Part shown: piece by piece, positions 3,476 to 37,030 of the stretch
Layout of the letters: each line of letters starts with the position of its first letter
Position numbering within the stretch: the stretch's first letter is position 1
Assembly (NCBI RefSeq): GCF_964355755.1
Contig: NC_092672.1
Span: 18,861,237-18,925,236 of the forward strand
Direction: 5' to 3'
Length of the DNA stretch: 64,000 bases
Source: Antedon mediterranea
Taxonomy: Eukaryota; Animalia; Echinodermata
Made by a program: the position numbers and the translations under genes
The notes under the pieces: generated by a model
The model's database searches: none
Seen by the model: the letters and a program-made list of their open reading frames with translations, nothing else
Told to the model about the DNA's origin: nothing

Positions 3476-4840
3476 ATGAACCTTTTACGTGTCTCAATGT
3501 TTTGTACGATAATATTATTGAATATAGGCCTTACGTGCTTGGCTTCAGCAAAGGATTTTCTTGAGGAACCTGAGGATGTTAAAGTATTGTTTGCTACAGA
3601 ACATAGATTCAAGTGTACAGTTTCTACTAATAGTACTATACTAAGACATTCATTTTCATGGGTCAAAGATGGTGTGCTCATAGAAGATCAAGATGATATA
3701 TATGAAGGAAGATATTTTATTTTTACAAGCAATATTGTTAGCAATGACGTTTCTGTTCTAAATATTAAAGCCGTTAAAATAGAAGATGAAGGGTATTATC
3801 ATTGTTCTGTTGTACAGTTAAAAACAATGAAAACATTTGATTCTCGACGTGCGAGGTTGACAGTTAAATCGTTACCTAGGCCAATGTTTCCAGTATGCTT
3901 GCCTGCCGATAGCGTTGATGTTCTTGTTGGTACATCAATAAAACTCTCGTGTAAAAGTGAAAACGTTTTTCCTGAAGTAAATTTAAAATGGTACCAAAAT
4001 AGTAATGCAATAAATGATGGAGTTCATACATTTAAAGACGATGAATATGTCATATTAGAACTGATATTATCTGTGAAAAAAGAAGAAAATAATGATGTTT
4101 TTACTTGTCAGCAAACTTCTGAATTAGTACCTAGAAACATTTCTAGCTGCTCTGTCGGACCAATCACCGTTCGTTATAAACCTACTATCATTATTCAACA
4201 TACTGACCAGATATTACCAGGTAGGGATTCTATACTTTTCTGCCAAACCTTTGCAAATCCGCCGGTTACTAATTATAAATGGATATTTAGTCCTAAATTA
4301 AACAGAGACCAGTATTTTGTAGATGAAACAGGTCAGCTTTTAACTCTAACAAATCCAACATTTCAACAGAATGGAACTACTGTAACTTGCCTGGCGGAAA
4401 ATGAAGTTGGTGAAAATTCGTCAACAATTCGGTTACACATTGGAAAGTCGAATATTAATGAGAAAGCAAGTAATGCAGATTCATCTGGAATTCAAAAGTC
4501 AAGTGAAACCATAGATTTATCATTGGATGTAATCATAATCATTGCTGCTGGTGTCGTTATCATTATTGTACTTGTTGTTCTGGTTCCCATATATCATTAT
4601 TGTTTGTGTCGTAATGATAACAATATAATAGTTGATTCTTTAGGAAAAGAAGTAACTCAACCTGAAGTTTATTATGAGACAAGAGAGGGAGTTATTTTAA
4701 GACATACAGTACAAGATCGTTCGTTACCTCGTGTACCTACAACAGAAGTATATGGTCATTGGAGACATTCAACAGCTTCACAGGTTCCTAATGATCTTGA
4801 ATCACATAGTTATACTTATATTGACACAGAAAATGATTGA
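3476..4840 (+). CDS. G1: 3-Ig type-I membrane receptor (subfamily A, most divergent ectodomain)
   Basis: 454 aa uninterrupted ORF. Signal peptide; Ig1 FKC..WVKDG..DEGYYHC; Ig2 LSC..LKWY..FTC; Ig3 LFC..NPPV.YKW..VTCLAEN; TM VIIIIAAGVVIIIVLVVLVPIY; shared tail ending HSYTYIDTEND. Confidence 0.92.
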   Translation: MNLLRVSMFCTIILLNIGLTCLASAKDFLEEPEDVKVLFATEHRFKCTVSTNSTILRHSFSWVKDGVLIEDQDDIYEGRYFIFTSNIVSNDVSVLNIKAVKIEDEGYYHCSVVQLKTMKTFDSRRARLTVKSLPRPMFPVCLPADSVDVLVGTSIKLSCKSENVFPEVNLKWYQNSNAINDGVHTFKDDEYVILELILSVKKEENNDVFTCQQTSELVPRNISSCSVGPITVRYKPTIIIQHTDQILPGRDSILFCQTFANPPVTNYKWIFSPKLNRDQYFVDETGQLLTLTNPTFQQNGTTVTCLAENEVGENSSTIRLHIGKSNINEKASNADSSGIQKSSETIDLSLDVIIIIAAGVVIIIVLVVLVPIYHYCLCRNDNNIIVDSLGKEVTQPEVYYETREGVILRHTVQDRSLPRVPTTEVYGHWRHSTASQVPNDLESHSYTYIDTEND

Positions 4841-5269
4841 TAGCAACTTTCAATTTGAAGAACGTAATAATGGGAATATGATTAACGTATGTGCCTACCA
4901 TTATGAGAAACAATATAATTGTATTTATTCTAATTTATTCACACTAAAGAACTTCATCCTTAGCATTGTACATACGTTTGAGATTTGTTGAATTACGTCA
5001 TCTTTCCATCTATTATAAGTTATTCAGAAATAAGTACAGCTATGAATTATCTGGTCTTGATTATGAAGCATTCATTCACTCATTTCTTATATTTTGGTCA
5101 GTAGGCCTACATAATCCAAACCAAACTTTAATACAGTAACTTGATTTCTTATAAAAAATAAGTATTTCCTATATATTCTAAATTAAGGTCTATTTCTAAG
5201 TCATATAATAATTATATTTATGTCTTTTTTAGGGACATAAACACCATTGTATTTTAGATGGTTATTCAT

Positions 5270-6190
5270 TTTATTTTTATTTCGAAAACTCTGTTCCATA
5301 GAAAGTAAATTACATATAAATGAAATAAATATAATAAACAAAATTACTACTACTCATCTCAGGATGGCATTCCATCTGGAGAGCATCTTCGACTTAACTA
5401 AGACGTTGCTTATAATCGTTGAGATTAAAATATTTTTGCTTGCATTAAGTCTACACATCAGGCCATATATTGATATTCTTAACAATTCATAAAAAGAGGG
5501 AATTCTACATTCCGTAAACATGAGGCCGGCACTGCAATGTCGAGGCCTTTGCAACAACATTTTTAAACCATTATTGTAGCATACCTGGAGAGATCGCAAG
5601 GTACCTTGATTATAGTTGCACCATAATGTAGCACAATACATATTTACACAATATGTTCTAAATAAGAGACATTTCACATTGATAGAACACATACTAAATT
5701 TTCTGACCAAGGAGTTGGCTCGGATACACAAAGATCTGTATTGCCGCTTTATATCAAACTCATCACATACATCCAAGGATATAACATGACCAAGATATGT
5801 GGTTGAGTCAACATATTCTAAGCTTTTGCCATTAATGGTAATACTATGTTTCAATTGAATCCTCCGTGACTTAGGACAGATTATCATACAAGATGATTTC
5901 TTAGCATTGTAAACAATATCATTTTTGGCCGCAAAGCATTCAGAAATTTCAATTAGATGTTGCAACCCTGATGCAGAAGGTGATATAAGCACCATGTCAT
6001 CTGCATACGATAGGTTGTTAAATTTAATATTATTTAACTCACACCCTTCTTTGCTGTTGCTAAGCTTAATGATAAGATCATTTATATATATATTATACAG
6101 ATGGGGAGACATCACTCCTCCCAGTCTAACACCATTTGATACAACATGAAAGGGCTCCGAAAAGGATTTGCCCCATTTAACAATGAAAGT
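5270..6190 (-). mobile_element. 5'-truncated non-LTR retrotransposon (RT C-terminal part)
   Basis: ORF 5354-6115(-) with SPHLYNIYINDL, LSYADDMVL and YLGH RT motifs; upstream reads GVRLGG (degenerate GVxQG). Confidence 0.85.
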
Positions 6191-6223
6191 GTTACGTTTA
6201 TTGGTAGTCTGTTATCTTTATAA

Positions 6224-6387
6224 ATCAAGTAGTTCTCACTAGGCTCACAACCCAAGACGTAAATACAATGTAAGTGATTTGACCAATCATAAGCAATTGA
6301 TTTTTCGAACTGTCCCTTGTTTGGTCAACACACTTGCGTTGCGTCTATGCCATTGCGTTGAGTCTCTAGTGTGGAAACCATGCCTTA
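6224..6387. mobile_element. MITE (Harbinger/PIF-like), degenerate copy of the family at 63412-63579
   Basis: Ends gttctcactag...ctagtgtggaaacca and internal ttgaccaatcataagc are shared with 63412-63579. Confidence 0.55.
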
Positions 6388-7044
6388 GATTTTGAAATAC
6401 GTCTGGATTTAGGAGCAACATGTATAGTCAAGAATGATTCATTCAGAGTTGTTAATTGGAAATTGAAAACATGACTTCTTATTTAAAGGCATTTGACCTA
6501 TTATTTTTTTTACCAGAAAGATCTTTATTACGTTCACAGCCTATTAAAAATATTTTTTTACCTATATTTATACTATTATGTATGTATAGTTATTTGTTTT
6601 TAAAAAACAATTACAGTTTCAATATCAGCTTTATGCTTAATTCATTCGCAATTTGTCAAGTTTCACTACTAGATTTATATAATTATAAATATACAAGTTC
6701 CAGGCTAGTCAATTAATAGGCAATGGATTTAAGAGGTTTCTATAGTCGTGTTTATTGTCATTGTTCTCCTTTCATATGTGTTAAGTTTTTAAATGTATTT
6801 TTCTTTACTTTGAAAATTCATGTTTTAAAATTATTTAAAAAATATCTTGAAAAGAAGTAGTAATACCCTAAAATACAAATAATTATGAAGGCTGTGACAT
6901 GAGTAAACATTGCAAGCACTAAAACGCGTAACACAACACAATTACTGTAGAGCCACTATCTTAATGTTATGAAGAGTTAACAATGTGTATAATTGACATA
7001 CGGTTTTGCAGGCAATCGTCATTACTTTTCTTATAGTTTCAAGA

Positions 7045-8376
7045 ATGAGTTCTATTTTACTTCTTTTAGTTATATTATTGTCGCATTTGGAAAATTGTAA
7101 AGGAATAATTACAACACAACCTTTAGATGAAACCGTTAAAAAAGGAAAAAATCATTGGTTTCCCTGTGTTGCTGATGGAATTGAAAGTGATCAATCACTG
7201 CAATGGTTTCGAAATGGAAAGAGGTTGAACGAAGAACCAAGAATAACTATTGAGAATAATGAAAGTGGGACAAGTAGCATGCTATATATTACTGGAATTA
7301 TCCCAAGTGATGCAGGTCAGTATTATTGCGCAGTTGTAAAATCATCAACGGACGAAAAAATTGCTTCATCAAGAACTGCAACTCTCGTTGTCAAATCACT
7401 TCCCTCGTCCCAGTATCCATATTGTATTTTAGAAACAATACCGATCATTGCTGGATCAAATTTAAAATTATTATGTTTATCGGAGAAAGTGGTACCTCCA
7501 GTAACGTTAGATTGGATGTATCCAATAGATATTCGATATAAAAACACACAACTTATGGAAGATGGAAAAAATATATCGTTAGAGTTAAGCATGACAGCTA
7601 AAAAACAATATAACGGTATTGTGTTTAGTTGTAAACAAGAATCAACTTTAGTACAAAATAACTACACATTATGTTCTGTGGGTCCTTTGGATGTATTATA
7701 TAAACCAGATACTGCTGTACAGTACGCTAGTCCAGCACTACCAGGTCGTGAGACAATTGTATTTTGTCAAACCTCTTCAAATCCACCTGTAACCTCCTAC
7801 CGCTGGTTATTTGATCCGCAACTGTCAGAAGATGAATACAATATAGATGAATCTGGACAAATTTTAAAACTGTTAAATCCAAAAATCAAGCAAACTGGAA
7901 CTAATATATCATGTGTTGCCACAAACGAAGTAGGTTACGGGTCATCATCTGTAAATTTGCATGTGTCATATAACCAGGTGGATTCTGAACATGGATCGAC
8001 GACAGGTGATGAAAATCGTAACGAATTTCAAAGTAAGGAACGCGATATTGGTTTATCATTGGATGTAATTATAATCATTGCTGCTGGTGTTGTTATCATT
8101 ATTGTACTTGTTGTTCTGGTTCCCGTATATCATTATTGTTTGTGTCGTAATGATAACACTATAATAGTTGATTCTTTAGGAAAAGAAGTAACTCAACCTG
8201 AAGTATATTATGAGACAAGAGAAGGAGTTATTTTAAGACATACAGTACAAGATCGTTCATTACCTCGTGTACCTACTACAGAAGTATATGGTCATTGGAG
8301 ACACTCAACAGCTTCACAGGTTCCTAATGATCTTGAATCACATTGTTATACTTACATTGATACAGAAAATGATTGA
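7045..8376 (+). CDS. G2: 3-Ig type-I membrane receptor (subfamily B)
   Basis: The ORF track starts at a TTG; the first ATG (7045) gives signal peptide MSSILLLLVILLSHLENCKG. Three Ig domains, TM, shared tail. Confidence 0.92.
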   Translation: MSSILLLLVILLSHLENCKGIITTQPLDETVKKGKNHWFPCVADGIESDQSLQWFRNGKRLNEEPRITIENNESGTSSMLYITGIIPSDAGQYYCAVVKSSTDEKIASSRTATLVVKSLPSSQYPYCILETIPIIAGSNLKLLCLSEKVVPPVTLDWMYPIDIRYKNTQLMEDGKNISLELSMTAKKQYNGIVFSCKQESTLVQNNYTLCSVGPLDVLYKPDTAVQYASPALPGRETIVFCQTSSNPPVTSYRWLFDPQLSEDEYNIDESGQILKLLNPKIKQTGTNISCVATNEVGYGSSSVNLHVSYNQVDSEHGSTTGDENRNEFQSKERDIGLSLDVIIIIAAGVVIIIVLVVLVPVYHYCLCRNDNTIIVDSLGKEVTQPEVYYETREGVILRHTVQDRSLPRVPTTEVYGHWRHSTASQVPNDLESHCYTYIDTEND

Positions 8377-9485
8377 CATCCAATTTCTTTGACTACATAA
8401 TACATTGGAAAACAATTAATTATAAATATGTGTATGATGAAAGTTCGGGGAACATACTGTACATTCTAATAATTAATTTAGTTTAAATAAATAATTGAAA
8501 TGTGTTTTTTTATGTCAATTGAAATCTAATGCAAAATTAGGCCCTACTATAATCAGGAATGATGGTTTGTATGCATTGGTAATATACAAATACAATTAAA
8601 GAACACTTACTAGTTTGGGTGAACATGTCTGTGTTATCAACAACCGTCCTCAGTTTGAACACAGTTGTTAAACGATGATGGCCGAAATAATAATATTTCA
8701 AATAACTGGTAAATGTTGTTGACTTGTTTTATTTTTTCCCTGAAGTATAATCATTCTAATAGATTGCTTTGATTATTCAAGTTTTCTTTTTGATTGTTTG
8801 AATGCAATCGCAAAAATTTACTTTTGGAGAAAAAATCCAAATTCAAAAACAGTTTATTTTAAATATTTTGTATGTGATCAAAATTACGAGAAATGTAGTT
8901 TTGTGGAACATAATGTTCATCTAGAATATTGTACGCACACCCAAAACATTTTTTGTTGAGAAACATTTCAAAGTATCCAGTGTCAGACAAAAAATATATA
9001 ACACTCGATAAATCATCATAATTTAACCTGTGTTCCTAAATATTAACTTTCAATTTTGTAGCCAGTTTTATTTTTAAACGGTGTCACGTTTATTGTAATA
9101 TAAAACAAATAATAAGATAACTAACTATGGGATAGGAAATTAAATTTTCTATTGTTGTATAAAAACTATAGTATACATTCCTGTCAAGTTTATAAGTCTA
9201 TATTTAAAATTAATTGAATTTGTTTAGTATTCAGATTGACATTAGAATTGTAACTTTATTGTAATAAAATCTTAAATAGAATTACAAAATTACATAAATG
9301 TACAGATACAAATATTAGAGATTTTTTTCTAAAACAAAAACTAGAAGGCGTAACACAACACATTTTTTGTAGAGCCTACATCTTGGTTATAATAGGTGCA
9401 TGCAGGAAATCTTGAATACGATTATAAGGTCACCACTGATATCTTTTTATGTATAAAATACAGACATTGTAAATTAGTACCGATA

Positions 9486-10814
9486 ATGAGTGTTATTCTG
9501 TTTCTAATTTTGTCAGCGTGTTTAAAAAGAATATATTGTGAAGGATTATTTAGAACTCAACCTTCAGATGGTGAAGTACTAAATGGAGAAACCCATTGGT
9601 TTTCCTGTGATTTTAACGAAATTCAAAGTGGTCAATCATTACAATGGTTCCGAAATGGAAAGAGGTTGAATGAAGAACCAAGAATAACAATTAATAGTAA
9701 GAATAGTGGGACAAGTTTGTTATATATTGCTGGAACTATCCCAAGTGATGCAGGTCAGTATTATTGCGCAGTTGTAAAATCATCAACGGATGAAACAATT
9801 GCTTCATCAAGAACTGCAACTCTCGTTGTCAAATCACTTCCCTCGTCCCAGTATCCATATTGTATTTTAGAAACAATACCGATCATTGCTGGATCAAATT
9901 TAAAATTATTATGTTTATCGGAGAAAGTGGTACCTCCAGTAACGTTAGATTGGATCTATCCAATAGATATTCGATATAAAAACACACAACTTATGGAAGA
10001 TGGAAAAAATATATCGTTAGAGTTAAGCATGACAGCTAAAAAACAATATAACGGTATTGTGTTTACTTGTAAACAAGAATCAACTTTAGTACAAAATAAC
10101 TACACATTATGTTCTGTGGGTCCTTTGGATGTATTATATAAACCAGATACTGCTGTACAGTACGCTAGTCCAGCACTACCAGGTCGTGAGACAATTGTAT
10201 TTTGTCAAACCTCTTCAAATCCACCTGTAACCTCCTACCGCTGGTTATTTGATCCGCAACTGTCAAAGGATGAATACAATATAGATGAATCTGGACAAAT
10301 TTTAAAACTGTTAAATCCAAAAATCAAGCAAACTGGAACTAATATATCATGTGTTGCCACAAACGAAGTAGGTTACGGGTCATCATCTGTAAATCTGCAT
10401 GTGTCATATAACCAGGTGGATTCTGAACATGGATCGACGACAGGTGATGAAAATCGTAACGAATTTCAAAGTAAGGAACGCGATATTGGTTTATCATTGG
10501 ATGTAATCATAATCATTGCTGCTGGTGTTGTTATCATTATTGTACTTGTTGTTCTGGTTCCCGTATATCATTATTGTTTGTGTCGTAATGATAACACTAT
10601 TATAGTTGATTCTTTAGGAAAAGAAGTAACTCAACCTGAAGTATATTATGAGACAAGAGAAGGAGTTATTTTAAGACATACAGTCCAAGATCGTTCATTA
10701 CCCCGTGTACCTACTACAGAAGTATATGGTCATTGGAGACACTCAACAGCTTCACAGGTTCCTAATGATCTTGAATCACATAGTTATACTTACATTGACA
10801 CTGATAATGATTAA
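9486..10814 (+). CDS. G3: 3-Ig type-I membrane receptor (subfamily B)
   Basis: The ORF track starts at a GTG; ATG 9486 gives signal peptide MSVILFLILSACLKRIYCEG. Nearly identical to G2 from late Ig1 onward. Confidence 0.92.
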   Translation: MSVILFLILSACLKRIYCEGLFRTQPSDGEVLNGETHWFSCDFNEIQSGQSLQWFRNGKRLNEEPRITINSKNSGTSLLYIAGTIPSDAGQYYCAVVKSSTDETIASSRTATLVVKSLPSSQYPYCILETIPIIAGSNLKLLCLSEKVVPPVTLDWIYPIDIRYKNTQLMEDGKNISLELSMTAKKQYNGIVFTCKQESTLVQNNYTLCSVGPLDVLYKPDTAVQYASPALPGRETIVFCQTSSNPPVTSYRWLFDPQLSKDEYNIDESGQILKLLNPKIKQTGTNISCVATNEVGYGSSSVNLHVSYNQVDSEHGSTTGDENRNEFQSKERDIGLSLDVIIIIAAGVVIIIVLVVLVPVYHYCLCRNDNTIIVDSLGKEVTQPEVYYETREGVILRHTVQDRSLPRVPTTEVYGHWRHSTASQVPNDLESHSYTYIDTDND

Positions 10815-11693
10815 AATAAACAGTTTGTTTTTGTTTTTTCTAATCATAGTAATGATTAAAAAATATTATTTTAACAAATAAAACAATGTATTTGTCAGAT
10901 GTTTTTCAATACTCCGACGTAATTTCACTGAATATACATGTATTGACTATCCAATAATATTACGTAAGTACTATTAGAAGTGTTTGGCAACACCTATAGC
11001 CGTGCCGATTCATTAAAAATCCGCTTCGTAGTTTCTGTAGACTGAAGTTGAACAAATTAGGATCGGTAGGAAAAATTATACAGACGTTTAAGTTGGCATA
11101 TTAATTTGATTATTGTTTGATACATTTTCTATTAGGTAGTCTGTTATACTATGAATATAATTGTGTTACAAATAATTTATTTGTAGCATACATTATTTTT
11201 CGAATTCTACAAAGAGAATTTCAATAATTCGTTTTATTTATTAACTAAAATTATTGAAATGTATTATATATCAGACACATGACCTGATTGTGTTTCTTTA
11301 CAAATGACGTTGACTGCTAAATTTACTTGGCCAGTATCCATAATTTGTGAATTGTTGTTATACTATTAATTTTCCTACGAAGAACCAAAAGTCAATAACT
11401 TTAGTTTAGATCCGCCCTCTTAGAGGACGAACTCAATCATAATGTATGCCACGGGTCGCATAGTAACTCATCTTACGATCTGTGGTCTATGACGCTCGAC
11501 TCAATGAGGTTCTTGACAGAGGAATTTTATCAAACTATATTATTGGACTTTAGCCGTTGTGGGCTATATGCTAGCAGAAAAATTGTTACAATATTAAATT
11601 AAAAGATTTCTCATTTAAACGATTTATTACTTTTCATTAAATCTATCTTACCAAACTATAGACGGATTTGGGATTCACTCAAAACAAATGGGA

Positions 11694-12520
11694 ACTAGAA
11701 AGTCACTCCGAGAGTGCATACCCCCGTCTACTGTAAAATGGTTATGTAACCAGCCTTTCAACTAAAAATAGATTCTGTTGACTAAAAATAGAACAGCAAC
11801 GCCAAAAACAAACGGGTGAATTTAAAAAGAAATAGTTTATTTAAACTACTCGTAGCAAAAAACCCTGTAATTTAAATCAATTTATGTTTTAAAATTTCAA
11901 ATCACAAATTATAACTCTTGCCTCTTGTACAAAAAGTTTTTTGGACACAAGTAAAAAAGGTAAAGGTGAGTCCCGTATTCTCTGAACGTAGGGGAATGAG
12001 CTGTTAGGAGCTCATTGTACTAAGCCTCGGCATTATGTGGTAGGGTGGCCAGTTCCTTTCCACGCCGCCTTTTTTCTCCCTAGTATTTTTCAACCAGGTA
12101 CTCATTTACAGCTGAGTGGACTGGGAGTTGTCGGGAATTGAACCCGGGTCTATCTGTATGACAGTCAAGTGTCCTAACCACTCGGCTATCAACAACTCCT
12201 TTGGACAAGTAGTTCTCGAAAAAAGGCAATTTCAGTTTAATTGTTACTTTCAGACTGCTCGTCGGCATTTGAAAATGATGTCCTATCTTTTAACACTAGC
12301 AGGTCTGAAAATAATACTAAAAAGTGGTCCAAAATTGGGACCGTAGTCCGGATTGCCTCCAAAATTCTTGACCACATAATTATCAGTATTTTCATTTTGG
12401 TAAAGATCTTGTAATTACTTTTTGAGTAATTCTGCTAACAAACAAACAAACGCGATCGATTACCTATACCCCTCTTGGCGGAGGTAAACGATCGATTACA
12501 TACCTCTTTGGCGGAGGTAA
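11694..12520 (+). mobile_element. Helentron-associated (HINE/DINE-1-like) non-autonomous element, interrupted by a SINE
   Basis: Starts ACTAGAAA plus hairpin cactccgagagtg. Ends with a (CAAA)n microsatellite and ttggcggaggtaa, complementary to the 5' subterminal tacctccgcc seen in other copies. Related copies at 29908-30290, 37977-38460 and 62755-63240. Confidence 0.65.
11954..12199 (-). mobile_element. tRNA-derived SINE
   Basis: Minus strand: A-box tagccgagtgg, B-box ggttcaattcc, core gtccactcagctgtaaatgagtacc, (ACCTTT)n tail. Flanked by approximate TSD tttggac(ac)aagta. Confidence 0.8.
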
Positions 12521-13801
12521 CTTAATGAAAATCTAAAACGCATGTGTACAATGTATGTTGTTTCTTTCGCCCTTTCACGTTGAAGTTTCTGGGGATCTCC
12601 AAGCTACAAAAATGTGCATAAAATAAGCAGTTTCTGAGAAATTATAAAAATGAAAAAATATGAGAAAATATCGAAAATGCGCTGTATAATTTCAAAGCCA
12701 ATTTAAAAAAAAATTACGTTAACTAGAGGGTGAGGTCGCTTCGCTCGCTCCCCTCTAGGAAGTGTAGACGATGATTCTCGGAATGATAATGTTCCATTAT
12801 TGAAAATGTTTGACATTCGTAAAACTAAACTACTCTTTGGCTTAAATGGCTATGACTAATGGCCAAATTAAGCTCCAGTTCTAGTATCTGTTTTTTTTCT
12901 GCTGTCTTCCAAAGGGACACTGTATTGATTGATGGAAAGTGCCTGTTTCCAGTCACCTTTAGGGTCAAATCTATTACTTTAACTGCTCCCTTGTGTATAA
13001 AAGAGAGAAAATAGTTGAAACCAGGTTGTTGCAAGGTGAACTCATCGTAAACCCTAAAATTACTTTGACCGCGAAGAATTGAAATTGAGCTGAAAATCTA
13101 CTGTTGAAATAATAAATTTTGTTAAAAAACTCTTTATAATATTTTCCTAAGATAGAAATATGGAACAATAGCGTCGAACTGAAAACTAATGTTATCAAAT
13201 CTACGTTTCGCGGTACATCTGAGAAGTGTTTCCATTGTGCTCGCCTATGTCAGAATTAACCATAATTTATATATAGAGTACGCAAAAAATTAATGGGTCA
13301 ACCTCTCACTTTCGAAGACTCATATCGAAGAACATATTTATGTAATATTATTTGGAACTTAAATCTATTTCTTTACAATTTTTCTTTATCTTTACGATTA
13401 AAAACGCATTGTATGTTTTTTTTTTTAAATTACATGGAAATGAATAGGGAAACATATGTGTAATTATAGCCTTTTTTTGATGTTTTTCATAATAACCATG
13501 TAGCCTATAAAAAGATATAAAAGAACCTTCGAATAAGGTAAAAGTAATGTTTATTTTGAACTGAATAAAATAAACATTTGAATGTTGTTTTCCACACAGT
13601 ATTTACAATATTTCAAACTGACAAATTTAAGTATTATTTAATTTCAAAGACACTTAAGTACGTGTAACAATTTGTTATATTGATGTGTCCTTTCTGAATA
13701 CCAGTACTTTATAAAATGCAGGGCATACGCTATTTATTACCTCTTACATAGGTGAGCAATGAGGAAATCTATTATAGTTTTGAACTATTGAACATTTCAA
13801 C

Positions 13802-15157
13802 ATGGAAAGAAACGTTTTATTTTTTCTCTTAGTAAATAATTTTGCAATGTTTTGTTTACACCATTGTAAGGCTACGATTGGATTTAAAGATCAGCCTTCT
13901 GACGCTCGCGTGGATCTTGGAAAGGATCACACCTTTTCCTGTATAGTTAATGGCATGGATAATCAACAAAATTTGGCTTGGTTAAAAGATGGAGTACTAA
14001 TACGAACTCAAGAAGATGATAATAGAATAACAATTGGATATAGCAACATCATCAAGATTGGAAAATTAACAACTTTGACTTTAAATAACCTTTTAAAATC
14101 TGACAGGGGACGTTATCAATGTGTCGTTATATCAACTGAAACAAATTCAGTAGAGGAACGTTCATTGGAGGCTATACTTACAGTGTTATCTCAACCGTCA
14201 TCGATATATCCACTGTGTTCTGGACATGAAGATAACATTGCCATTGGATCAGTTATAACAATTTCTTGTATTTCAGAACGTGTTGAACCTCCTGTAAATT
14301 TAACAATTTCTCGTAACATGAATATAGTTAAAAATGGTGTCTCGTTTGTAGAAAATGAAAAGTTACAAATGCTATTAAAAACAAGAAAAGAAGATAATCG
14401 AGCTATTTTCACATGCCATCAGACTTCACCACTAGCTCCCGAATCAGAATCTACGTGTTCTATTGGCCCGTTAAATGTTCAATATAAACCAGAAATACAG
14501 CTTCAATACACCAATCCTGTTATATCAGAAAGGGAGACAATTTTATTTTGTCAGACATCGTCTAACCCACCTGTTGGGACTTATAATTGGAAAATTGAAC
14601 CAAACTTTGCAAAAAGTGACTACAGTATTGATGAAACTGGACAGGTACTAAAACTAATCAAACCTTCGATAGTGCACAACGGAACAAATATTACATGCAC
14701 CGCTGTAAATAAAATCGGTAAATCATCATCAACCGTTACGATATTAGTTGAATCTCCGAATATTTTAAAAAGTAATGAGCAAAATGGCAAACTACGAAAT
14801 CAAAATTCAGGTAATAACATGACTGGAAAAAAATTATCATTGGATGTTATCATCGTAATCGCTTCTGGTGTTGTTATCATTATTGTACTTGTTGTTCTGG
14901 TTCCCGTATATCATTATTGTTTGTGTGGTAATGATAACACTATTATAGTTGATTCTTTAGGAAAAGAAGTAACTCAACCTGAAGTGTATTATGAGACAAG
15001 AGAGGGAGTTATTTTAAGATATACAGTACAAGATCGTTCATTACCTCGTGTACCTACTACAGAAGTATATGGTCATTGGAGACACTCAACAGCTTCACAG
15101 GTTCCTAACGACCTTGAATCGCATAGTTATACTTACATTGATACAGAAAATGATTGA
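13802..15157 (+). CDS. G4: 3-Ig type-I membrane receptor (subfamily C)
   Basis: 451 aa ORF with signal peptide, three Ig domains (WLKDG..DRGRYQC), TM and shared tail. Confidence 0.92.
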   Translation: MERNVLFFLLVNNFAMFCLHHCKATIGFKDQPSDARVDLGKDHTFSCIVNGMDNQQNLAWLKDGVLIRTQEDDNRITIGYSNIIKIGKLTTLTLNNLLKSDRGRYQCVVISTETNSVEERSLEAILTVLSQPSSIYPLCSGHEDNIAIGSVITISCISERVEPPVNLTISRNMNIVKNGVSFVENEKLQMLLKTRKEDNRAIFTCHQTSPLAPESESTCSIGPLNVQYKPEIQLQYTNPVISERETILFCQTSSNPPVGTYNWKIEPNFAKSDYSIDETGQVLKLIKPSIVHNGTNITCTAVNKIGKSSSTVTILVESPNILKSNEQNGKLRNQNSGNNMTGKKLSLDVIIVIASGVVIIIVLVVLVPVYHYCLCGNDNTIIVDSLGKEVTQPEVYYETREGVILRYTVQDRSLPRVPTTEVYGHWRHSTASQVPNDLESHSYTYIDTEND

Positions 15158-15990
15158 GTAGTACTGTACCTATGAACTTTGTTTCAGCTGATAACATTTA
15201 TATTTTGCTATAATTATTATTAACCAAATGATTATTGTTGTGTTTTTTTATCTGTATTTATTAATTCAATAAACAGTGATTCCTAAGATAGATAAACACG
15301 ATATTTTACAGTGGGATTTTTACAAATAAATACACAAACACCCAATACATGTAATGTAAAATAATTGTAAGTTGGGCAGTTGTTATTCAACCAGGTTACC
15401 AACATTTGGTTGTACTCAAATCGTCAGAATGAATAAACGACTTCTAATCTTTTAGTGTTGATTTAAATTCTCCCAACTTTTAGGCAAGTGCAGATTTAAA
15501 ATTTGAGTGAATTTGTACAAAAACCTATCCATGCCACTTGAGTATAAAAAATGCCGATATGGTAGGTCTAAATATCAATATCATATTATGTCGAAACCAT
15601 GAATGACTTGTAATAGAACAATGATTCATTTGAAGAGAACGAAAAAATATGCTTTAATTTGAACGCAGCACAACTCGGATATGTGACGGGAAAATTATTA
15701 CTATAATCTTAAAGATATTTTAATAATTTCCTATGTTTTAGCTGATTAACTATTTACAAACCAACATCATAATCTAAGGTCAACAGGGAAAAAAATGTTT
15801 AACCTCATACAATGTTTGCCCATTAAAATATAGCGTTTATTTATAAGTGTCTAATATTTCAATAAATTATTATAATATTATAAAAACAGTTATTATTAAC
15901 TACCATCCGAAAGGAACAACTTTATGAACGAAATTAGATATATGTTTTATAGTTTCAAAAATTCAAAATAGTATTTTAAAGAAAATTAGA

Positions 15991-16009
15991 AAACGAGAAA
16001 CATAACTTT
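15991..16009 (+). promoter_or_regulatory. Conserved upstream element of the Ig genes (AAACGAGAAACAYAACTT)
   Basis: Same motif at 19693, 26126, 32890, 41066, 43251 and 51747; variants at 6922, 9344, 13657, 23006 and 3322. Always ~110-155 bp upstream of the ATG. Function is inferred. Confidence 0.55.
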
Positions 16010-16126
16010 TAATATATTGATACAATGTCTTAATCGGTACTGTAAAGGCACTTATATAATAGTTACATTTCTCATTTTAAACCTGATAGTGTATCTGTAT
16101 GTATGAAAAGGTAAACTACATTAGCA

Positions 16127-17476
16127 ATGGTTTTTTTATTGAGTATTAAGTTGTTTGTGATAACGTTTATTGTGGTCCGTGGTGATTTAATTAAATTTAT
16201 AGATGAACCTTTAAATGGATATGTTGATATTGGAAAGGACCACTCTTTGACTTGTGTTGTTAGCGGGTTAATTAATGAAGAACTTACATGGCATAAAAAT
16301 GGCGTACAGTTACTTTTTGAGGACGAAGACGTTAAATTACACATTTCTAAAACCAACAATGAAATATCAATCGGAAATATTACAACATTGGCTGTTTTAA
16401 ATGCTTTACGAAGTGATACCGGTTTATACCAATGTGTTGTTATATCATTGGAATCTGGAATAATTTTGAAAAAGTCGCGTAAAGCGGAATTAATTGTGCG
16501 TTCTTTTCCTTCTCCACAGTATCCCATTTGTCATCAACCTAGAGCTGACATTCCCTTGGGATCTACTATATCAATGTCATGTGTTTCTGAGAAAGTTAAC
16601 CCACCTGTAACTCTACAATTCATACGTAATTCTCAAAGTTTAAACGCTGGAACGATAAAACAAGAAATTGAAAAGTTTGTAAAATTTCGGCTTAAATTAA
16701 ACGCGACGAAAGATGACAATGGAGCTGTTTACGAATGTCACCAGTATTCATCATTTGATTCAAGTTATCGCAAATCATGTTCAATGAAACCTCTGAATAT
16801 ACAATATAAACCTGAGATTAAGATACAACACACTAATCCAGTGTTACCTGGACGAGAGACGATTCTGTTCTGCCAAACGTTTGCTAATCCACCTGTCTCA
16901 CAATACCGTTGGACATTAGTGCCTCCAATAAAAGATGAAGATATTATTGTTGACAAAACTGGACAAACATTAAAACTTGTGCGACCTTTAATTGAACAAA
17001 GTAGAACCAATATAACATGTACTGCTACTAATGAAATTGGACAGGTATCATCGTCTGTAGTATTAACAGTTTGAAATACTATCATTAACTCAGATAATTC
17101 GTACGAACCATCGAGTAATACAAACTTAAATAATTCCCAGAAAGAAATAAATTTATCATTAGATGTTGTTATCATCATCGCTGCTGGTGTTGTTATCATT
17201 ATTGTACTTGTTGTTCTGGTTCCAGTATATCATTATTGTTTGTGTCGTAATGATAACACTACAATAGTTGATTCTTTAGGAAAAGAGGTAACTCAACCGG
17301 AAGTATATTATGAGGCAAGAGAGGGAGTTATTTTAAGACATACAGTTCAAGATCGTTCATTACCTCGTGTACCTACTACAGAAGTATATGGTCATTGGAG
17401 ACACTCAACAGCTTCACAGGTTCCTAATGATCTTGAATCGCATAGTTATACTTATATTGACACAGAAAATGATTGA
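16127..17476 (+). CDS. G5: subfamily D member with an in-frame TGA at 17072-17074 (secreted 315 aa 3-Ig protein or young pseudogene)
   Basis: TCA(Ser) in paralogs is TGA here, directly after Ig3 (VVLTV*). The frame continues intact through stalk, TM and tail to 17476. Confidence 0.8.
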
Positions 17477-17577
17477 TATCGGGGTATTATTATAATTATT
17501 ATTCTTTATTGACTGGGAATAACATTGTCCAGCATAGCACACAAACAGGACAGTAAGCATAACAAAGTCATATACAT

Positions 17578-17666
17578 GGCTGCAGTCGCGTGCTCAAATT
17601 TGAGTTAGTGTTTACCGACCAACCGACCGACCGACCAACCGACCAACATAGTGAGTTGTAGAGTCT
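17578..17666 (+). repeat. Short repeat with (CCGA)n microsatellite, HINE-like; inverted relatives at ~31040-31130 and ~39210-39300
   Basis: gagttagtgtttaccgaccaaccgaccgacc...catagtgag matches the reverse complement of ctcactatgtcggtcggttggtcggtcgttcggtaaacactaact. Confidence 0.55.
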
Positions 17667-18707
17667 AAAATAGCACTTATATATAGCAATAATATTTTCA
17701 CTAATTTTACCTAGTTTCTGTTTTTTTTTCAATTTCACACTCTGATTATCACTGCCTTTACGGAAGGGAGTGGTCTGTGATCAGTGTTCGTTGAGCATCA
17801 CCAAGATCTGGATTCGAAGTATCGTCATCATTTGAATGTTGTGCAATTGTGGTGAATGTATCACAAATGCTTTAATATTTTTATGCCCATTTAAGTATTC
17901 CAGGCATTGGTATTTTATACATTTTACATTCATAGTTTATGCACAGTATTCATCTTAAACCGGATATTACTAGTGGCAAAACATACCCTTAGATAAATTT
18001 TAATGAAAGTCTTTGACCTTGGGCAATACTTTTATACTTTTAAGTGTATTGTATGTTTTAAAGAATGACTCATGTTGCAATAAATTTCTCGACAGAATAG
18101 GATCTCGTCCATCTACTAGGAAAATTGTTGATTGGATGTCTAAATTTGGAAAAAATATTAGACTCACTGGGATTTCTCACCAAATCCTCAATTTGTGAGT
18201 TTAGTTAGGTTCAGAACAAATTTCCTATGGAACTTCTTCCGATGAATTACCTGGTTGGAGTTTCTTATGGAGACACACCTAGACAATTCTCTAGTTCTGT
18301 TCTGACCACAGAGAAAAGGCATATCCAAGTTTTAGGAATACTCACTATAGGTATCCAATCAAAACAGAATGTCAACCAACATCTAAATCGTTAGTTTTAG
18401 ACTCTAGTTTCAATGTACAGGGTCACCATTGTACTAAAGGTTGTAAAACCTAAAAAACTAGATCTATGTCTAGGCTTCGCAGATTACTGACCGAGGATTG
18501 TTTCAGTAACTCTGTTAGTAGCTCTAGTCTGATGGACTACAGCTCTAGTAATAATGAGAGTAGTACAAGTGACAAAATAGTGATCAGGATAGGGCTTATA
18601 GTAATATAGTATAGTAATATAGTAATATTCTACGAGTACCATTCAATCCAAAAGACGACACTCGCATAGGCATTCCCACCGATCACAAAAACCTAAAATC
18701 ACAACAT

Positions 18708-18818
18708 TTACCTCGTGTATCTACTAAAGAAGTATATGGTCATTGAAGACACTCAACAGCTTCACAGGTTCCTAATGATCTTGAATTACATAGTTTTACT
18801 TATATTGATAAATATTGA
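18708..18818 (+). pseudogene. Orphan fragment of the constant cytoplasmic tail
   Basis: ttacctcgtgtatctactaaagaagtatatggtcattgaagacactcaacagc... reads LPRV.T.EVYGH*RHSTASQVPNDLE (TGG>TGA). Confidence 0.85.
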
Positions 18819-19059
18819 TATACCAAGGCACCTAGCAATCATTTCTATTTTCAATAAACAGCAGATATCTTATGAATAGATAGCTTAGTATCTCCTTTAT
18901 GTAGTTATGTTTTCTGTTGGTACATACTTTCAAAAACATTATGCACCATTGCAATCATTGTTAATAAACATACGTCATAGATTGTTATCTTTAAATACCT
19001 TACTTATTATATTTTAATTCAACAGCCACAATGTAAAAATAGTAATAGTTTTTCAATCT

Positions 19060-19640
19060 TCTGCATGGTTATTTACCTGTTCTTAAGAAAACGGTACAGT
19101 AAAATGACAATATTATTTGTTAACAGTAATTCTTACCTTCTTGTGTTGAAGCTATTAGTTTATATATGAAAGAGAATCATTCTTTTTCGTTGTATTGTTA
19201 GTGGATTAAAGAATAAAAATCTTACATGGTTTGAAAATGGTGGACAGATATATATCAATGAAGAAGAATGACAAATGTCTGTAATCCACAGAAATTCATT
19301 CGAAAATTTAACTACCTTTGTTACTATAGATGCATTTTTATCAATGCGCTCTTATGTCATTGGAATCTGGAAGAGTATTGTAAAGTTCACGTAAAACGGA
19401 ATTACTGGTGTGTTCACTACCTTCATTGGTCGTCAATCAAAAGGTAACATTATCTTAGGTTCTACAAAATGTTTCTGAAAACGTTACCACCTCCCCCTCC
19501 CTGTAATTTTACAATTTACTAGTAATTATCAAAATGTAAACTCTAGAATATCAACTGCAGAGACAGAAACTTAGTAGAAGTTCAATTTAAATTGAACGCA
19601 AACAAATATGAAAATTGAGCTACTGTATATACGAATGTCA
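19060..19640 (+). pseudogene. Decayed 5' copy (leader, Ig1, Ig2) of a subfamily D gene, most like G9
   Basis: Leader aagaaaacggtacagtaaaatg, then cttacatggtttgaaaatggtggacagatatat (LTWFENGGQIY), cctgtaattttacaatttac and tacgaatgtca; many indels and stops. Confidence 0.8.
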
Positions 19641-19842
19641 TAGATTCGAGATACTTTGTCAGATCTGACTATGAAAAACAGATTTGAAATGTAAACGAGA
19701 AACACAACTTTGTTATATATTGGCACAGCGTCATAACGGTAGGCTACTGACAATATTCTTGTTACTGGTACTGATATAAAAAATAGAACTATAATTGTCT
19801 ACCGTACCATTTATCTGCAAGTAAATAATAAAATAAATTGAT

Positions 19843-21183
19843 ATGGTGTTACCATTGAGTCTTACGCTTACATTTTTTTTGGTTGTTTGTGACGCGTTTT
19901 TTCAGTTTATAGATGAACCTTCGAACGGACAAGTTGATCTAGGAAAAGACCATTCTTTGTCATGTGTTGTTAGTGGCTTATTGACTGAGCAGCTTACTTG
20001 GGTTAAAGATGGTAATCGAATACTTTTCAATAACGAAGAAGAATCACGGATATCTAAAGGTAATAGTGAAATATCAACTGGAAATTTGACAACATTGGTT
20101 ATTGACAATACATTGCGAAGTGATGCAGGTTTTTATCAATGCGTTGTTATATCGATGGAATCTGGAAGGATATTGAAAACATCACGTAACGCGGAATTAA
20201 TTGTGCGTTCTTTACCTTCTTCAAAGTATCCACTTTGTTATCAATCAAAATCTGACATTCTTTTAGGATCTGTAATTTCAATGTCATGTGTTTCAGAGAA
20301 AGTTACCCCACATGTAACTTTAAAAATTACGCGTAATTCTCAAAATATAAATTCTGGAATGCCAACACCAGGAACAGGGAACATGGTGACAGTTCAACTT
20401 ACATTAAACGCAACGAAAAGAGACAATGGAGCAGTATACGAATGTCACCAGCATTCATCATTTGATTCAAATTATCAGAAATCATGTTCAATGAAACCTC
20501 TGAATATACAATATAAACCTGAGATAAAGATACAACACACTAATCCAGTGTTACCTGGACGAGAGACGATTCTATTCTGCCAAACTTTTGCTAATCCACC
20601 TGTCTCACAATACCATTGGAAATTAGTGCCTCCAATAAAAGATGAAGATATTTTTGCTGACAAAACTGGACAAACATTAAAACTGTTACGACCTTCAATA
20701 AAACATAGTGGAACAAATATAACATGTACTGCTACTAATGAAATTGGACAGATATCATCGTCTGTAGTATTAACAGTTTCTAATACTATAATTAACTCAG
20801 ATAATTCGTATGAACCATCGAGTAATACAAACTTACACAATCCTGAGAAAGGAATAAGTTTATCATTAGATGTTGTTATTATCATCGTTGCTGGTGTTGT
20901 TATTATTATTGTACTTGTTGTTCTGGTTCCCGTATATCATTATTGTTTGTGTCGTAATGATAACACTACAATAGTTGATTCTTTAGGAAAAGAAGTAACT
21001 CAACCGGAAGTATATTATGAGACAAGAGAGGGAGTTATTTTAAGACATACAGTACAAGATCGTTCATTACCTCGTGTACCTACTACAGAAGTATATGGTC
21101 ATTGGAGACATTCAACAGCTTCACAGGTTCCTAATGATCTTGAATCACATAGTTATACTTATATTGACACTGAAAATGATTGA
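19843..21183 (+). CDS. G6: 3-Ig type-I membrane receptor (subfamily D)
   Basis: 446 aa ORF, same architecture and tail. Confidence 0.92.
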   Translation: MVLPLSLTLTFFLVVCDAFFQFIDEPSNGQVDLGKDHSLSCVVSGLLTEQLTWVKDGNRILFNNEEESRISKGNSEISTGNLTTLVIDNTLRSDAGFYQCVVISMESGRILKTSRNAELIVRSLPSSKYPLCYQSKSDILLGSVISMSCVSEKVTPHVTLKITRNSQNINSGMPTPGTGNMVTVQLTLNATKRDNGAVYECHQHSSFDSNYQKSCSMKPLNIQYKPEIKIQHTNPVLPGRETILFCQTFANPPVSQYHWKLVPPIKDEDIFADKTGQTLKLLRPSIKHSGTNITCTATNEIGQISSSVVLTVSNTIINSDNSYEPSSNTNLHNPEKGISLSLDVVIIIVAGVVIIIVLVVLVPVYHYCLCRNDNTTIVDSLGKEVTQPEVYYETREGVILRHTVQDRSLPRVPTTEVYGHWRHSTASQVPNDLESHSYTYIDTEND

Positions 21184-21620
21184 TATCGGGGTTTATGGCC
21201 CGATCTAAGATCAAATTTTCTTCAATTGATACGATAGATGAAATAAATAACATTTAAGCATCATTCTAAAGAAAAATTTAGTAAGTATTAATAAATGTTC
21301 TATTAATTTGATATTGTTAATTACTTTAACGCAATAGGCCTATTCAAATTGGATTTAATTATCCTCCGTGTAGATATCTCTGATGTCGAGGACCATAGTA
21401 TGCTTTGATAATTACACGTTTTCACCTAATTGTGGTAACGAAGTAATGCTAATCCTTTTCTTTGTAATCATATTGTCAGTTTGTAGAGCCATGTCATGTC
21501 ATGTCATGAATAGTTAACAATGTGTATAATAAGGTATTATGCAGGTATGTATTATGTATCAAAGAATAATGACATACGGTTTTGCAGGCAATCGTCATTA
21601 CTTTTCAAGTAGTTTTAAGA

Positions 21621-22255
21621 ATGAGTTCCATTTTAATTCTTTTTATTATATTATTGTCGCATTTGGAAAATTGTAAAGGAATATTTACAACAGAGCCTTT
21701 AGATGAAACCGTTAAAAAGGAAAAAATCATTGGTTTCTCTGTGTTGCTGATGGAATTGAAAGTGATCAATCACTGCAATGGTTTCAAAATGGAAAAAGGT
21801 TGAACGAAAAACCAAGAATAACTATTCAGAATAATGAAAGTGGGACATATTATTATATAAACCAGATAGTACGCTAGTCCAGCACTGCCAGGTCGTGAGA
21901 CAATTGTATTTTGTCAAACCTCTTCAAATCCACCTGTAACCTTGTACCGCTGGTTATTTGATACGCAACTGTCTGAATACAAAATAGGATGTATCTGGAA
22001 AAAATTTAAAACTATTAAATCCAATCCATTAGATCCAGCAAACTGGAACTAATATAACCTATGTTGCCACAAACGAAGTAGGTTACGGGTCATCATCTAT
22101 AAATTTGCATGTGTCATATAACCAGGTGGATAATATGGATCGACGACAGGTGATGGAAATCGTAACGAATTTCAAGTAACAAACACGATATTGGTTTGTC
22201 ATTGGATGTAATCTTAATAATGATAATAATAATCCGACTTTCTGTAGAATGATTA
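21621..22255 (+). pseudogene. Pseudogene of subfamily B (G2-type 5' end, G3-type 3' flank)
   Basis: G2-like signal peptide, frameshift near 21720, deletion of late Ig1 plus Ig2 at ~21848, decayed Ig3 and stalk. TM and tail are missing after LSLDVI. The 3' flank matches 10830-11050. Confidence 0.85.
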
Positions 22256-23149
22256 AAATGCAACAATTGTTTTTTCTAATCATTAGTAATGATTAAAAAA
22301 TATCATTTTAACAAATAAAACAATGTATTTGTCAGATGTTTTTCAATACTCCGACGTACAGTAATTTCACTAAATATACTCAGTACATGTACTGACTATC
22401 CAATACTGTTACGAAAGAGTTTGGCAACACTTCTAACCGTACTAATTGATTAATAATCTGCTTCGAGTTTTTGTAGACTGAAAAAAGATAAATATTTTGG
22501 TACATTACATATGGCGTTTCACACGTATACTACTTGAGCTTGGATATTTGACAAAAATCGAAATAAAAACAAATAAATAAAAAAAAAAGACAATGAATAC
22601 AGACATGAGGCAAGTCTAACGAAGACTCTGAAAACATATTTATAGAATATTTGTTAAGCTTAAATCTAATTCTTTACGATTTTTTTAAAACGTATCGATT
22701 TTGGCAATTACATGGAAATGAATAGGGAAACATGTGTGTAATTATAGCTATCCCCCAAATGGCATTTTTTTGATGTTTTTCATAATAACCATGTAGCCTA
22801 TAAAAAATATTTAAAAACCTTGAAAATAGGTAAAAGTAATGTTTATTTTGAACTGAATAAAATAAACATTTAAATGTTGTTTTCCACTTCCACATTAAGG
22901 TAATAATCTGAAAAACATCAAAAGATGTCGTGGCCTTGAATATCACAATAGTTACAATATTACAAACTGACAAATTTAAGTATTATTTAATTTCAAAGAC
23001 ATTTAAGTACGTGTAACATTTTTATTTATTGTTGTGTCCTTTCGGAATACCAGTACTTTATAAAATACAGGGCATACGCTATTTATTACCTCTTACATAG
23101 GTAAGAAATGCGCAAATCTTTTATAGCTTGAACTTTTGAACATTTCAAA

Positions 23150-24481
23150 ATGAGAAGAAACGTTTTATTTTTGTTCTTATTATTATGTTTACACCATAGT
23201 AAGGCTACGATTGAATTCAAAGAGCAACCTTCTGACGGTCGCGTGGATCTTGGAAAGGATCATACTTTTTCCTGTATAGTTAATGGTATGGATAATCAAC
23301 AATATTTGGCTTGGTTAAAAGATGGAGTACTAATACGAACTCAGGAAGCTAGAATAACAATTGGATATAGCAATATCAAGATTGGAAAATTAACAACTTT
23401 GACTTTAAATAAACTTTTAAAATCTGACAGGGGACGTTATCAATGTGTCGTTATATCAACTGAAACAAATTCAATAGAGGAACGCTCATTGGAGGCTATA
23501 CTTACAGTGTTATCTCAACCGTCATCGATATATCCACTGTGTTCTGGACATGAAGATAACATTGCCATTGGATCAGTTATAACAATTTCTTGTATTTCAG
23601 AACGTGTTGAACCTCCTGTAAATTTAACAATTTCTCGTAACATGAATATAGTTAAAAATGGTGTCTCGTTTGTAGAAAATGAAAAGTTACAAATGCTATT
23701 AAAAACAAGAAAAGAAGATAATCGAGCTATTTTCACATGCCATCAGACTTCACCACTAGCTCCCGAATCAGAATCTACGTGTTCTATTGGCCCGTTAAAT
23801 GTTCAATATAAACCAGAAATACAGCTTCAATACACCAATCCTGTTATACCAGAAAGGGAGACAATTTTATTTTGTCAGACATCGTCTAACCCACCTGTTG
23901 GGACTTATAATTGGAAAATTGAACCAAATTTTGCAAAAAGTGACTACAGTATTGATGAAACTGGACAGGTACTAAAACTAATCAAACCTTCGATAGTGCA
24001 CAACGGAACAAATATTACATGCACCGCTGTAAATAAAATCGGTAAATCATCATCAACCGTTACGATATTAGTTGAATCTCCGAATATTTTAAAAAGTAAT
24101 GAGCAAAATGGCAAACTACGAAATCAAAATTCAGGTAATAACATGACTGGAAAAAAATTATCATTGGATGTTATCATCGTAATCGCTTCTGGTGTTGTTA
24201 TCATTATTGTACTTGTTGTTCTGGTTCCCGTATATCATTATTGTTTGTGTGGTAATGATAACACTATTATAGTTGATTCTTTAGGAAAAGAAGTAACTCA
24301 ACCTGAAGTGTATTATGAGACAAGAGAGGGAGTTATTTTAAGACATACAGTACAAGATCGTTCATTACCTCGTGTACCTACTACAGAAGTATATGGTCAT
24401 TGGAGACACTCAACAGCTTCACAGGTTCCTAATGATCTTGAATCACATAGTTATACTTACATTGACACTGAAAATGATTGA
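23150..24481 (+). CDS. G7: 3-Ig type-I membrane receptor (subfamily C, close paralog of G4)
   Basis: 443 aa ORF, almost identical to G4 from Ig2 onward. Upstream ~500 bp is homologous to the G4 upstream region. Confidence 0.92.
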   Translation: MRRNVLFLFLLLCLHHSKATIEFKEQPSDGRVDLGKDHTFSCIVNGMDNQQYLAWLKDGVLIRTQEARITIGYSNIKIGKLTTLTLNKLLKSDRGRYQCVVISTETNSIEERSLEAILTVLSQPSSIYPLCSGHEDNIAIGSVITISCISERVEPPVNLTISRNMNIVKNGVSFVENEKLQMLLKTRKEDNRAIFTCHQTSPLAPESESTCSIGPLNVQYKPEIQLQYTNPVIPERETILFCQTSSNPPVGTYNWKIEPNFAKSDYSIDETGQVLKLIKPSIVHNGTNITCTAVNKIGKSSSTVTILVESPNILKSNEQNGKLRNQNSGNNMTGKKLSLDVIIVIASGVVIIIVLVVLVPVYHYCLCGNDNTIIVDSLGKEVTQPEVYYETREGVILRHTVQDRSLPRVPTTEVYGHWRHSTASQVPNDLESHSYTYIDTEND

Positions 24482-36956: not shown

Positions 36957-37030
36957 GTGGATAATACATATAAAAGTGCAGGCAGCACTTGCCAGCTTTA
37001 TACTATGACGTTATCCAAATTCCTTCACTT

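Follow-up and report, generated by a model that had tools for sequence, protein, structure and literature searches.

A tandem cluster of genes for putative three-Ig receptors in the crinoid Antedon mediterranea with a transmembrane and tail block homogenised among divergent paralogues

Described receptor clusters and the crinoid array

The large cell-identity repertoires known so far, those of insect Dscam1, chelicerate sDscam and vertebrate protocadherins, rely on splicing to attach variable tips to a constant end. In chelicerate sDscam, variable cassettes are joined to constant exons by promoter choice together with splicing (PMC4835542). Clustered protocadherins combine isoform-specific homophilic binding with stochastic expression in single cells, and a conserved promoter element precedes each of their variable units. 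Regional gene conversion is a well-known process in these genes. The fugu genes are reported to show regional conversion with a discrete border and raised GC3 (PMC1852091), and the 3' region of the fugu and zebrafish genes is homogenised in a lineage-specific manner, with converted regions that differ between subclusters (PMC1852091, PMC4978886). The Pcdh-beta genes are single-exon genes without constant exons, each with its own tail (PMC4978886, PMC8787164). The Alr genes of Hydractinia have their domains on separate exons, and their tails, which often contain ITAM or ITIM, are more divergent than their ectodomains (PMC9546547). Among echinoderm Ig proteins, KirrelL is expressed in skeletogenic cells and has a part in cell fusion. 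It is intronless, and the related Ig/TM proteins Kirrel2L, Hypp1164 and IgTM have been reported with it (PMC8903837).

The window analysed here, 64,000 nucleotides of Antedon mediterranea DNA with a GC content of 32%, carries 12 same-strand (+) genes in tandem (3476..53200) which encode cell-surface proteins with three Ig domains (Table 1). All genes but G5 read from Met to stop in a single open frame (11 of the 12 ORFs are intact); the start codons were chosen by us. The layout is signal peptide, three Ig domains, transmembrane (TM) segment and tail in every gene, and Pfam assigned Ig families to all four of the proteins scanned. The ectodomains fall into four subfamilies, A to D, and those of different subfamilies are 42% identical. 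G3 has diverged from G2 in the signal peptide and the start of Ig1, and the remainder up to the block described below is about 99% identical. As assembled, G5 contains an in-frame TGA at 17072-17074, upstream of the stalk; contigs over position 17073 resemble G8/G9-type paralogues. The intergenic DNA contains four decayed gene fragments and several LINE fragments.

Table 1. Positions of the array genes, their homogenised blocks and related fragments in the window
Feature	Position	Strand	Description
G1, subfamily A	3476..4840	+	single ORF of 454 aa: signal peptide, 3 Ig, stalk, TM, tail
G1 block, residues 348-454	4517..4840	+	TM helix (350-378) and disordered tail, both predicted
RSLPRVP in G1 tail	4718..4738	+	putative class I SH3 ligand by consensus
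G2, subfamily B	7045..8376	+	block 8053-8376
G3, subfamily B	9486..10814	+	block 10491-10814
G4, subfamily C	13802..15157	+	block 14834-15157
G5, subfamily D	16127..17476	+	block 17153-17476
Tail fragment, decayed	18708..18808	+	93% to G1
5' fragment of a subfamily D-like gene, decayed	19043..19640	+	64-69%
G6, subfamily D	19843..21183	+	block 20860-21183; nested border late in Ig2, near 20437
G2/G3-like pseudogene	21566..22482	+	similarity ends about 27 nt into the block and restarts in G3-like 3' flank
G7, subfamily C	23150..24481	+	block 24158-24481
Tail fragment with indels, decayed	25054..25250	+	87-89%
G8, subfamily D	26266..27615	+	block 27292-27615
G9, subfamily D, mosaic	33028..34377	+	block 34054-34377
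G10, subfamily D	41196..42545	+	block 42222-42545
G11, subfamily D	43400..44740	+	block 44417-44740
G12, subfamily D	51857..53200	+	block 52877-53200

The array resembles the clustered protocadherins in its tandem paralogues, divergent N-terminal recognition domains and apparently converted 3' region with a discrete border. In gene layout it is closest to Pcdh-beta, since each crinoid gene also encodes its own tail. However, the crinoid domains are Ig, with no cadherin family in the four of four proteins scanned, and there is no spliced constant exon, each gene having its own in-frame tail and stop. The zone common to the whole cluster runs exactly from the TM segment to the stop codon and spans subfamilies that are only 42% identical, and GC3 is lowered in the crinoid block rather than raised as reported for fugu. 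No shared promoter word was found within 800 nt upstream of the ATG, where shared 9-11-mers were not in excess over shuffles; promoters may lie further upstream. Chelicerate sDscam is likewise an invertebrate tandem array with variable Ig cassettes and a common C-terminal part, but every crinoid gene bears its own copy of the constant part. Alr is a large invertebrate cluster of type I proteins with one to three Ig domains; the crinoid pattern is the reverse of the published Alr pattern, with a uniform tail, and G1 lacks ITAM and ITIM. We rejected an assignment of the cluster to protocadherins, sDscam or Alr.

In design, the nearest echinoderm relatives are the intronless KirrelL-type proteins (PMC8903837). 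By eye, KirrelL, Kirrel2L, Hypp1164 and IgTM share the layout of signal peptide, three Ig-like domains and TM segment, and KirrelL shares the P..YP.C motif at the start of Ig2 (PMC8903837 supplement). KirrelL and the crinoid genes also have in common an intronless coding sequence for an Ig type I membrane protein, with 5' UTR introns possible in the crinoid genes. Anneissia KirrelL, at 623 letters, is by eye not one of the 437-474 aa cluster proteins, and the terms 'tandem' and 'paralog' are absent from the passages of PMC8903837.

Outside the echinoderms, the predicted three-Ig ectodomain superposes on nectin-1 (TM score by target 0.65-0.71), and profile matches of the ectodomain were obtained with Necl-4 and SYG-2. 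Nectin and CADM proteins share the combination of a three-Ig ectodomain and a single TM segment. Against a specific relationship to the nectin/CADM, Kirrel-SYG or IgLON-DIP proteins, identity is 17-23%, titin and LRIG1 rank equally high, and the crinoid tail is unrelated. Nectins carry a C-terminal hydrophobic PDZ-binding motif; such a C-terminus is absent from the crinoid tails, which end in TEND or TDND. ESM Atlas returned generic Ig adhesion clusters only.

Several other elements of the window were recorded. Segmental duplications pair 25993-29908 with 32748-36667 (94%) and 29908-34387 with 38077-42555 (95%); the duplicated segments (25993-42555) bear G8, G9 and G10 and two LINE fragment copies. 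Non-LTR retrotransposon fragments lie at 5354-6211, 27756-29707, 34518-36376 and 53476-54018, and reverse transcriptase matches were found in the three RT-like frames scanned (5357, 27756 and 53479). A 361-bp near-palindrome (37204-37564), 89% self-complementary and flanked by TA runs, has a tRNA-like core on the minus strand at 37324-37395 and looks like a tRNA-bearing hairpin or a MITE. Directly 3' of G5, at 17550-17660, lies a short repeat of very high copy number that has an ACCG/ACCA microsatellite at its core. A minus-strand frame of 166 codons at 1168-1914, with no Pfam match, adjoins a 112-bp inverted repeat (1559-1670/1804-1914) and is probably a transposon remnant.

The homogenised block in Antedon and Anneissia

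The final 324 nt of G1, from the start of the TM segment to the stop codon, have 11 further full copies with 93.5-96.3% identity to G1, and two decayed block fragments were found beyond these. Fifty of the 324 positions vary among the 12 copies. The preliminary description had claimed a homogenised block in all 12 genes, and this was confirmed, the copies being near-identical rather than identical. Between subfamilies (43 of the 66 pairs), pS was 0.67 in the ectodomain and 0.16 in the block, and the ectodomain value hardly varied by part (0.68 in Ig1, 0.66 in Ig2, 0.68 in Ig3 and 0.70 in the stalk). At four-fold sites the between-subfamily divergence was 0.63 in the ectodomain (0.65 expected at saturation) and 0.11 in the block (0.54 expected); these saturation levels were predicted from base composition, with the block's own codon usage applied to the block. 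The same description had named similar synonymous divergence in block and ectodomain as evidence against its proposal; the block was found to lie far below. In all 12 genes, GC3 was lower in the block, at 0.11-0.18, than in the ectodomain, at 0.19-0.25. Within subfamily D, the Ig domains had dN/dS values of 0.37-0.42, compared with 0.07 for the block.

The borders of the block differ in sharpness. Ungapped identity between subfamilies fell from 0.92 over the final 30 nt of the block to 0.38 over the 10 nt past the stop and to 0.29 beyond, which places the 3' border at the stop codon and agrees with the earlier statement that the 3' flanks of different subfamilies diverge there. On the 5' side, identity rose from 0.43 over the 30 nt upstream of the block to 0.80 in block nt 1-30 and 0.97 in nt 31-60; the border is the first codon of the block, followed by a ramp of about 11 codons. 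Thus the sharp borders reported earlier stand at the 3' end, while the 5' end is a short ramp. Informative sites compatible with the ectodomain subfamilies number 11 of 12 in the first 45 nt vs. 5 of 14 deeper in the block, and past codon 11 the divergence between subfamilies (0.036) is about that within subfamilies (0.033). The ectodomain DNA had also been called barely alignable, which holds for G1; for Ig3 of G2, G4 and G6 a weak DNA alignment can still be made, with 75-78% identity over 730-800 nt that include the block.

A search with the G1 protein gave 43 proteins. Close relatives of full length account for 28 of them, comprising 20 Anneissia japonica proteins, 5 Antedon mediterranea records and 3 proteins encoded in the window. 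Anneissia has the same ectodomain subfamilies. We built protein trees for these two species, omitting P0004, P0007 and P0019 as duplicates of window genes and, from the tail tree, also the truncated models P0020 and P0021. In the ectodomain tree (36 proteins), starred branches unite each of subfamilies B, C and D with Anneissia proteins, and G1 pairs with P0002 at 86/88, with long branches flagged. In the tail tree (34 proteins), all 12 window genes form one clade with support of 100/94. The ectodomain tree requires 7 changes of species label and the tail tree 3. AU tests were run on a 14-protein subset (6 of the 12 window genes and 8 Anneissia proteins), with groups picked after the tree had been seen. 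They rejected a window-species clade for the ectodomains (p = 0.00026) and rejected orthologue groups for the tails in four of four cases (p = 1.6e-6 to 0.0022). Species-specific tail clades with orthologous Ig1 clades had been predicted; the protein trees show such a contrast between the tails and the ectodomains.

Identities showed the same reversal. Ectodomains are more similar to their orthologues in the other species (60%) than to paralogues in their own (42%), whereas block proteins are more similar to own-species paralogues (96%) than to cross-species orthologues (90%). Even across the two species, tails are 87-90% identical. At block residue 17, all 12 window genes have I, and 16 of 17 Anneissia rows have V; at residue 65, V is found in all 12 window genes and I in 16 of the 17 Anneissia rows (two of the Anneissia rows being truncated models in both counts); the majority residue differs between species at seven block columns. 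The orthologous ectodomain clades and the species tail clade indicate that the subfamilies are older than the species split and that later tail changes reached every paralogue. Such changes in every paralogue of a species require DNA exchange. Anneissia has the same design in a looser form, with tails 88% identical between subfamilies vs. 96% in the window. A metagenome scan with the block gave 188 pattern matches and no relative among them.

The Antedon record P0019 carries the G7 ectodomain. This RefSeq model of G7 contains an in-frame 138-nt GT..AG interval (window 24128-24272) which removes the TM segment, and its acceptor AG falls within the homogenised block of G7. The TM skip represents a soluble splice form or, alternatively, a misalignment of paralogues.

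The family is far larger than the window. P0022-P0028 represent a second class, and P0091-P0188 include at least 11 distant Antedon members. A profile search gave further full-length members with the same tail motifs and far more divergent tails; among 20 matches looked at, 17 were crinoid and 2 were hemichordate multi-Ig proteins without the tail. In the 11 distant Antedon members the mean identity was 29% for the ectodomain and 28% for the tail; as these are cluster representatives, the values show only that homogenisation is not family-wide. No non-crinoid full-length member was found by a tail-only or a distant-member profile search, both of which are insensitive and missed known members. 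Contigs from other runs differ from G1 (3700-4480) by up to 27 differences in 144 nt within Ig1, which suggests G1-like paralogues outside the window together with polymorphic alleles. Among 30 G1 ectodomain differences listed from other runs, in which alleles and unseen paralogues may be mixed, 20 were synonymous and 10 were not.

Probable recurrent exchange and its alternatives

The most probable reading, at roughly 0.87, is that recurrent gene conversion over short tracts maintains the uniformity of the TM and tail block across old and divergent paralogues. This reading is based on low synonymous divergence confined to the block and on opposite protein trees of ectodomain and tail in two species. 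The domain-restricted conversion proposed in the preliminary description is thus supported by the pS contrast, the cross-species trees and the residues fixed species-wide. A counter-sign is that GC does not rise in the block, unlike in the fugu protocadherins; the lower uniformity of the Anneissia tails and the lack of a relation between block divergence and gene spacing, reported below, also count against it.

Signs of recombination within the block were mixed. In a four-gamete test, 112 of 325 pairs of informative block sites were incompatible, and incompatibility rose with distance (r = 0.45, permutation p = 0.0002). The trend persisted without near-duplicates (p = 0.0007) or without G5 (p = 0.0003). 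Without the first 33 nt of the block, 41 of 105 pairs were incompatible and the trend was weaker (r = 0.16, p = 0.06). Between subfamilies, a Sawyer-type longest-run test on polymorphic columns was weak, since invariant columns, which make up most of the block, do not enter it. Block divergence did not correlate with the physical distance between genes (rho = -0.10, p = 0.50).

Homogenisation also extends beyond the block. Within subfamily D there is a nested border at G1 residue 209 (late Ig2), with a divergence of 0.217 before it and 0.048 after it; the zone probably reaches into Ig2 because these younger paralogues are similar over a longer stretch. Ig1 of G8 is like that of G10, but G8 from Ig3 to the tail is almost identical to G9, and Ig1 of G9 is unlike both G8 and G10. 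G2 and G3 are also mosaic, with differences mainly N-terminal. The second paralogue class (P0022-P0028) has its own tail, 56% identical to the window tail, and in its four Antedon members the tails are 96.5% and the ectodomains 54% identical. The nested Ig2 border, the mosaics, the second class and the design of Anneissia point to a recurring process.

The main alternative is a single past burst, in which one donor tail was put onto all ectodomains after the species split and no exchange followed. The block DNA gives a star-like tree on which a subfamily D clade is not rejected (AU p = 0.24), distances within and between subfamilies are equal, and the distance trend is weak once the 5' edge is removed, all as a burst would predict. 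We regard it as improbable nonetheless. A third or more of the informative site pairs are four-gamete incompatible, 9 of the 14 inner informative block sites cut across the ectodomain subfamilies, and no intron interrupts the coding sequences at the border to allow shuffling of a tail. Because the pattern recurs in Anneissia, in the second class and at the nested Ig2 border, several independent bursts would be needed. A DNA or RNA element in the block (a structure, enhancer, splice or localisation signal) that constrains synonymous sites had been raised as an alternative to conversion and is more improbable still. Residues fixed species-wide need spread among paralogues, for which constraint alone is insufficient, and the borders follow the protein from TM start to stop codon, although third positions of the block are AT-rich and the P0019 model of G7 uses an AG inside the block as its splice acceptor. 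The block gave an RNA folding z-score of +0.70 (77 of 100 shuffles fold equally well), none of 93 consensus pairs had a two-sided change, and no block had an Rfam match, so the element found no support.

The remaining two explanations are the least credible. Purifying selection on the tail protein, combined with strong codon bias and convergence and without DNA exchange, would fit the block dN/dS of 0.07 and the 87-90% tail identity across species. It conflicts with the four-fold sites, where 0.11 was observed and 0.54 is the saturation level under block codon usage, and with Ig3, the most conserved part of the ectodomain, which is saturated between subfamilies (pS 0.68). The tails of the 11 distant Antedon relatives, which are 50%-identity cluster representatives and so picked to be unlike, are only 28% identical. 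Barring near-absolute codon selection in the block, the synonymous contrast rules this explanation out, and the earlier argument that protein-level purifying selection alone is insufficient is borne out. Equally hard to credit is an origin of the block likeness in assembly or polishing collapse, for which near-identical repeats are a known hazard. The blocks differ at 50 of 324 positions, and Anneissia records have the same design. A contig of another sample (run X10) crosses the stalk/block border of G1 with a single mismatch over 156 nt, and a second X10 contig crosses a D-type stalk/block border. Loose ends at 4516-4517 bear the stalks of other subfamilies in four of four runs. Contigs of other samples, checked because collapse had been named beforehand as a possible source, thus show the same stalk/block junctions; two further contigs that reach only 29 nt into the block were excluded from the junction count, and run X1, which matches 15200-16732 with zero differences and may be the source sample, was not counted as independent.

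Under recurrent conversion, strong selection on the tail (dN/dS 0.07 in D) would preserve, over an island of 324 nt, the similarity that non-allelic repair needs. Conversion in this island would remove synonymous drift and carry new variants across the cluster. Tracts would halt where homology ends, at the stalk on one side and at the stop codon and divergent 3' flank on the other, and tracts that homogenised Ig1-Ig2 would be blocked by heterology or purged. Because conversion within the island may be neutral or useful, the loop could reinforce itself, and uniformity is perhaps a by-product rather than the target of selection.

Predicted receptors and the meaning of the cluster

The AlphaFold model of G1 (mean pLDDT 82.6) has a signal helix, three beta-sandwich domains and a helix at 350-378, with low confidence in the stalk and tail. 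The tail is predicted to be disordered and contains juxtamembrane cysteines, several tyrosines (one in YxxI) and RSLPRVP, which we take to be a candidate class I SH3 ligand as it fits the consensus. Apart from the one YxxI, no ITIM, ITSM or ITAM was found in the G1 tail, and Pfam gave no match to the tail beyond a weak TM match. No domain showed dN/dS above 1. In subfamily D, amino-acid change was highest in the Ig1 C'-C''-D region (pN 0.33) and FG loop (0.28), and pS was high there too. In nectin, Necl, SYG and IgLON-type proteins these regions are partly the dimer face.

The proteins may be adhesion or recognition receptors with specificity in Ig1-Ig2 and a common tail with tyrosine and proline motifs; many different ectodomains would then share one intracellular module. 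A role in a developmental or neural adhesion code has about an even chance of being right. An immune or allorecognition role is possible at lower odds, and some other role is rather improbable. The long-kept orthologous subfamilies and the lack of immune motifs make us lean to an adhesion code over a race with pathogens. A bolder scenario, which we put forward only tentatively and think doubtful as a whole, is that crinoids used intronless three-Ig genes to build independently an identity code like those of protocadherins and Dscam, with conversion in place of splicing. Dozens of homophilic ectodomains would share one constant signalling tail, the two tail classes would be comparable to Pcdh alpha and gamma, and the code might serve self-avoidance or wiring in the branched nervous system of the arms.

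In the crinoid, Antedon and Anneissia literature searched, which includes PMC13079724 and few subscription papers, no description of this cluster was found, and the family is apparently undescribed. Equivalence of the block to a shared constant exon, as first suggested, is an analogy and not a result. Concerted evolution within the limits of a protein module is itself real and well supported, and the cluster is a clean case of it that also offers nested borders and a comparison of two species. Its stand-alone genes, with ends that exchange of DNA has probably made alike, attain the architecture of variable tips and a constant end, and the cluster supplies concrete candidates for a putative cell-recognition code in echinoderms.
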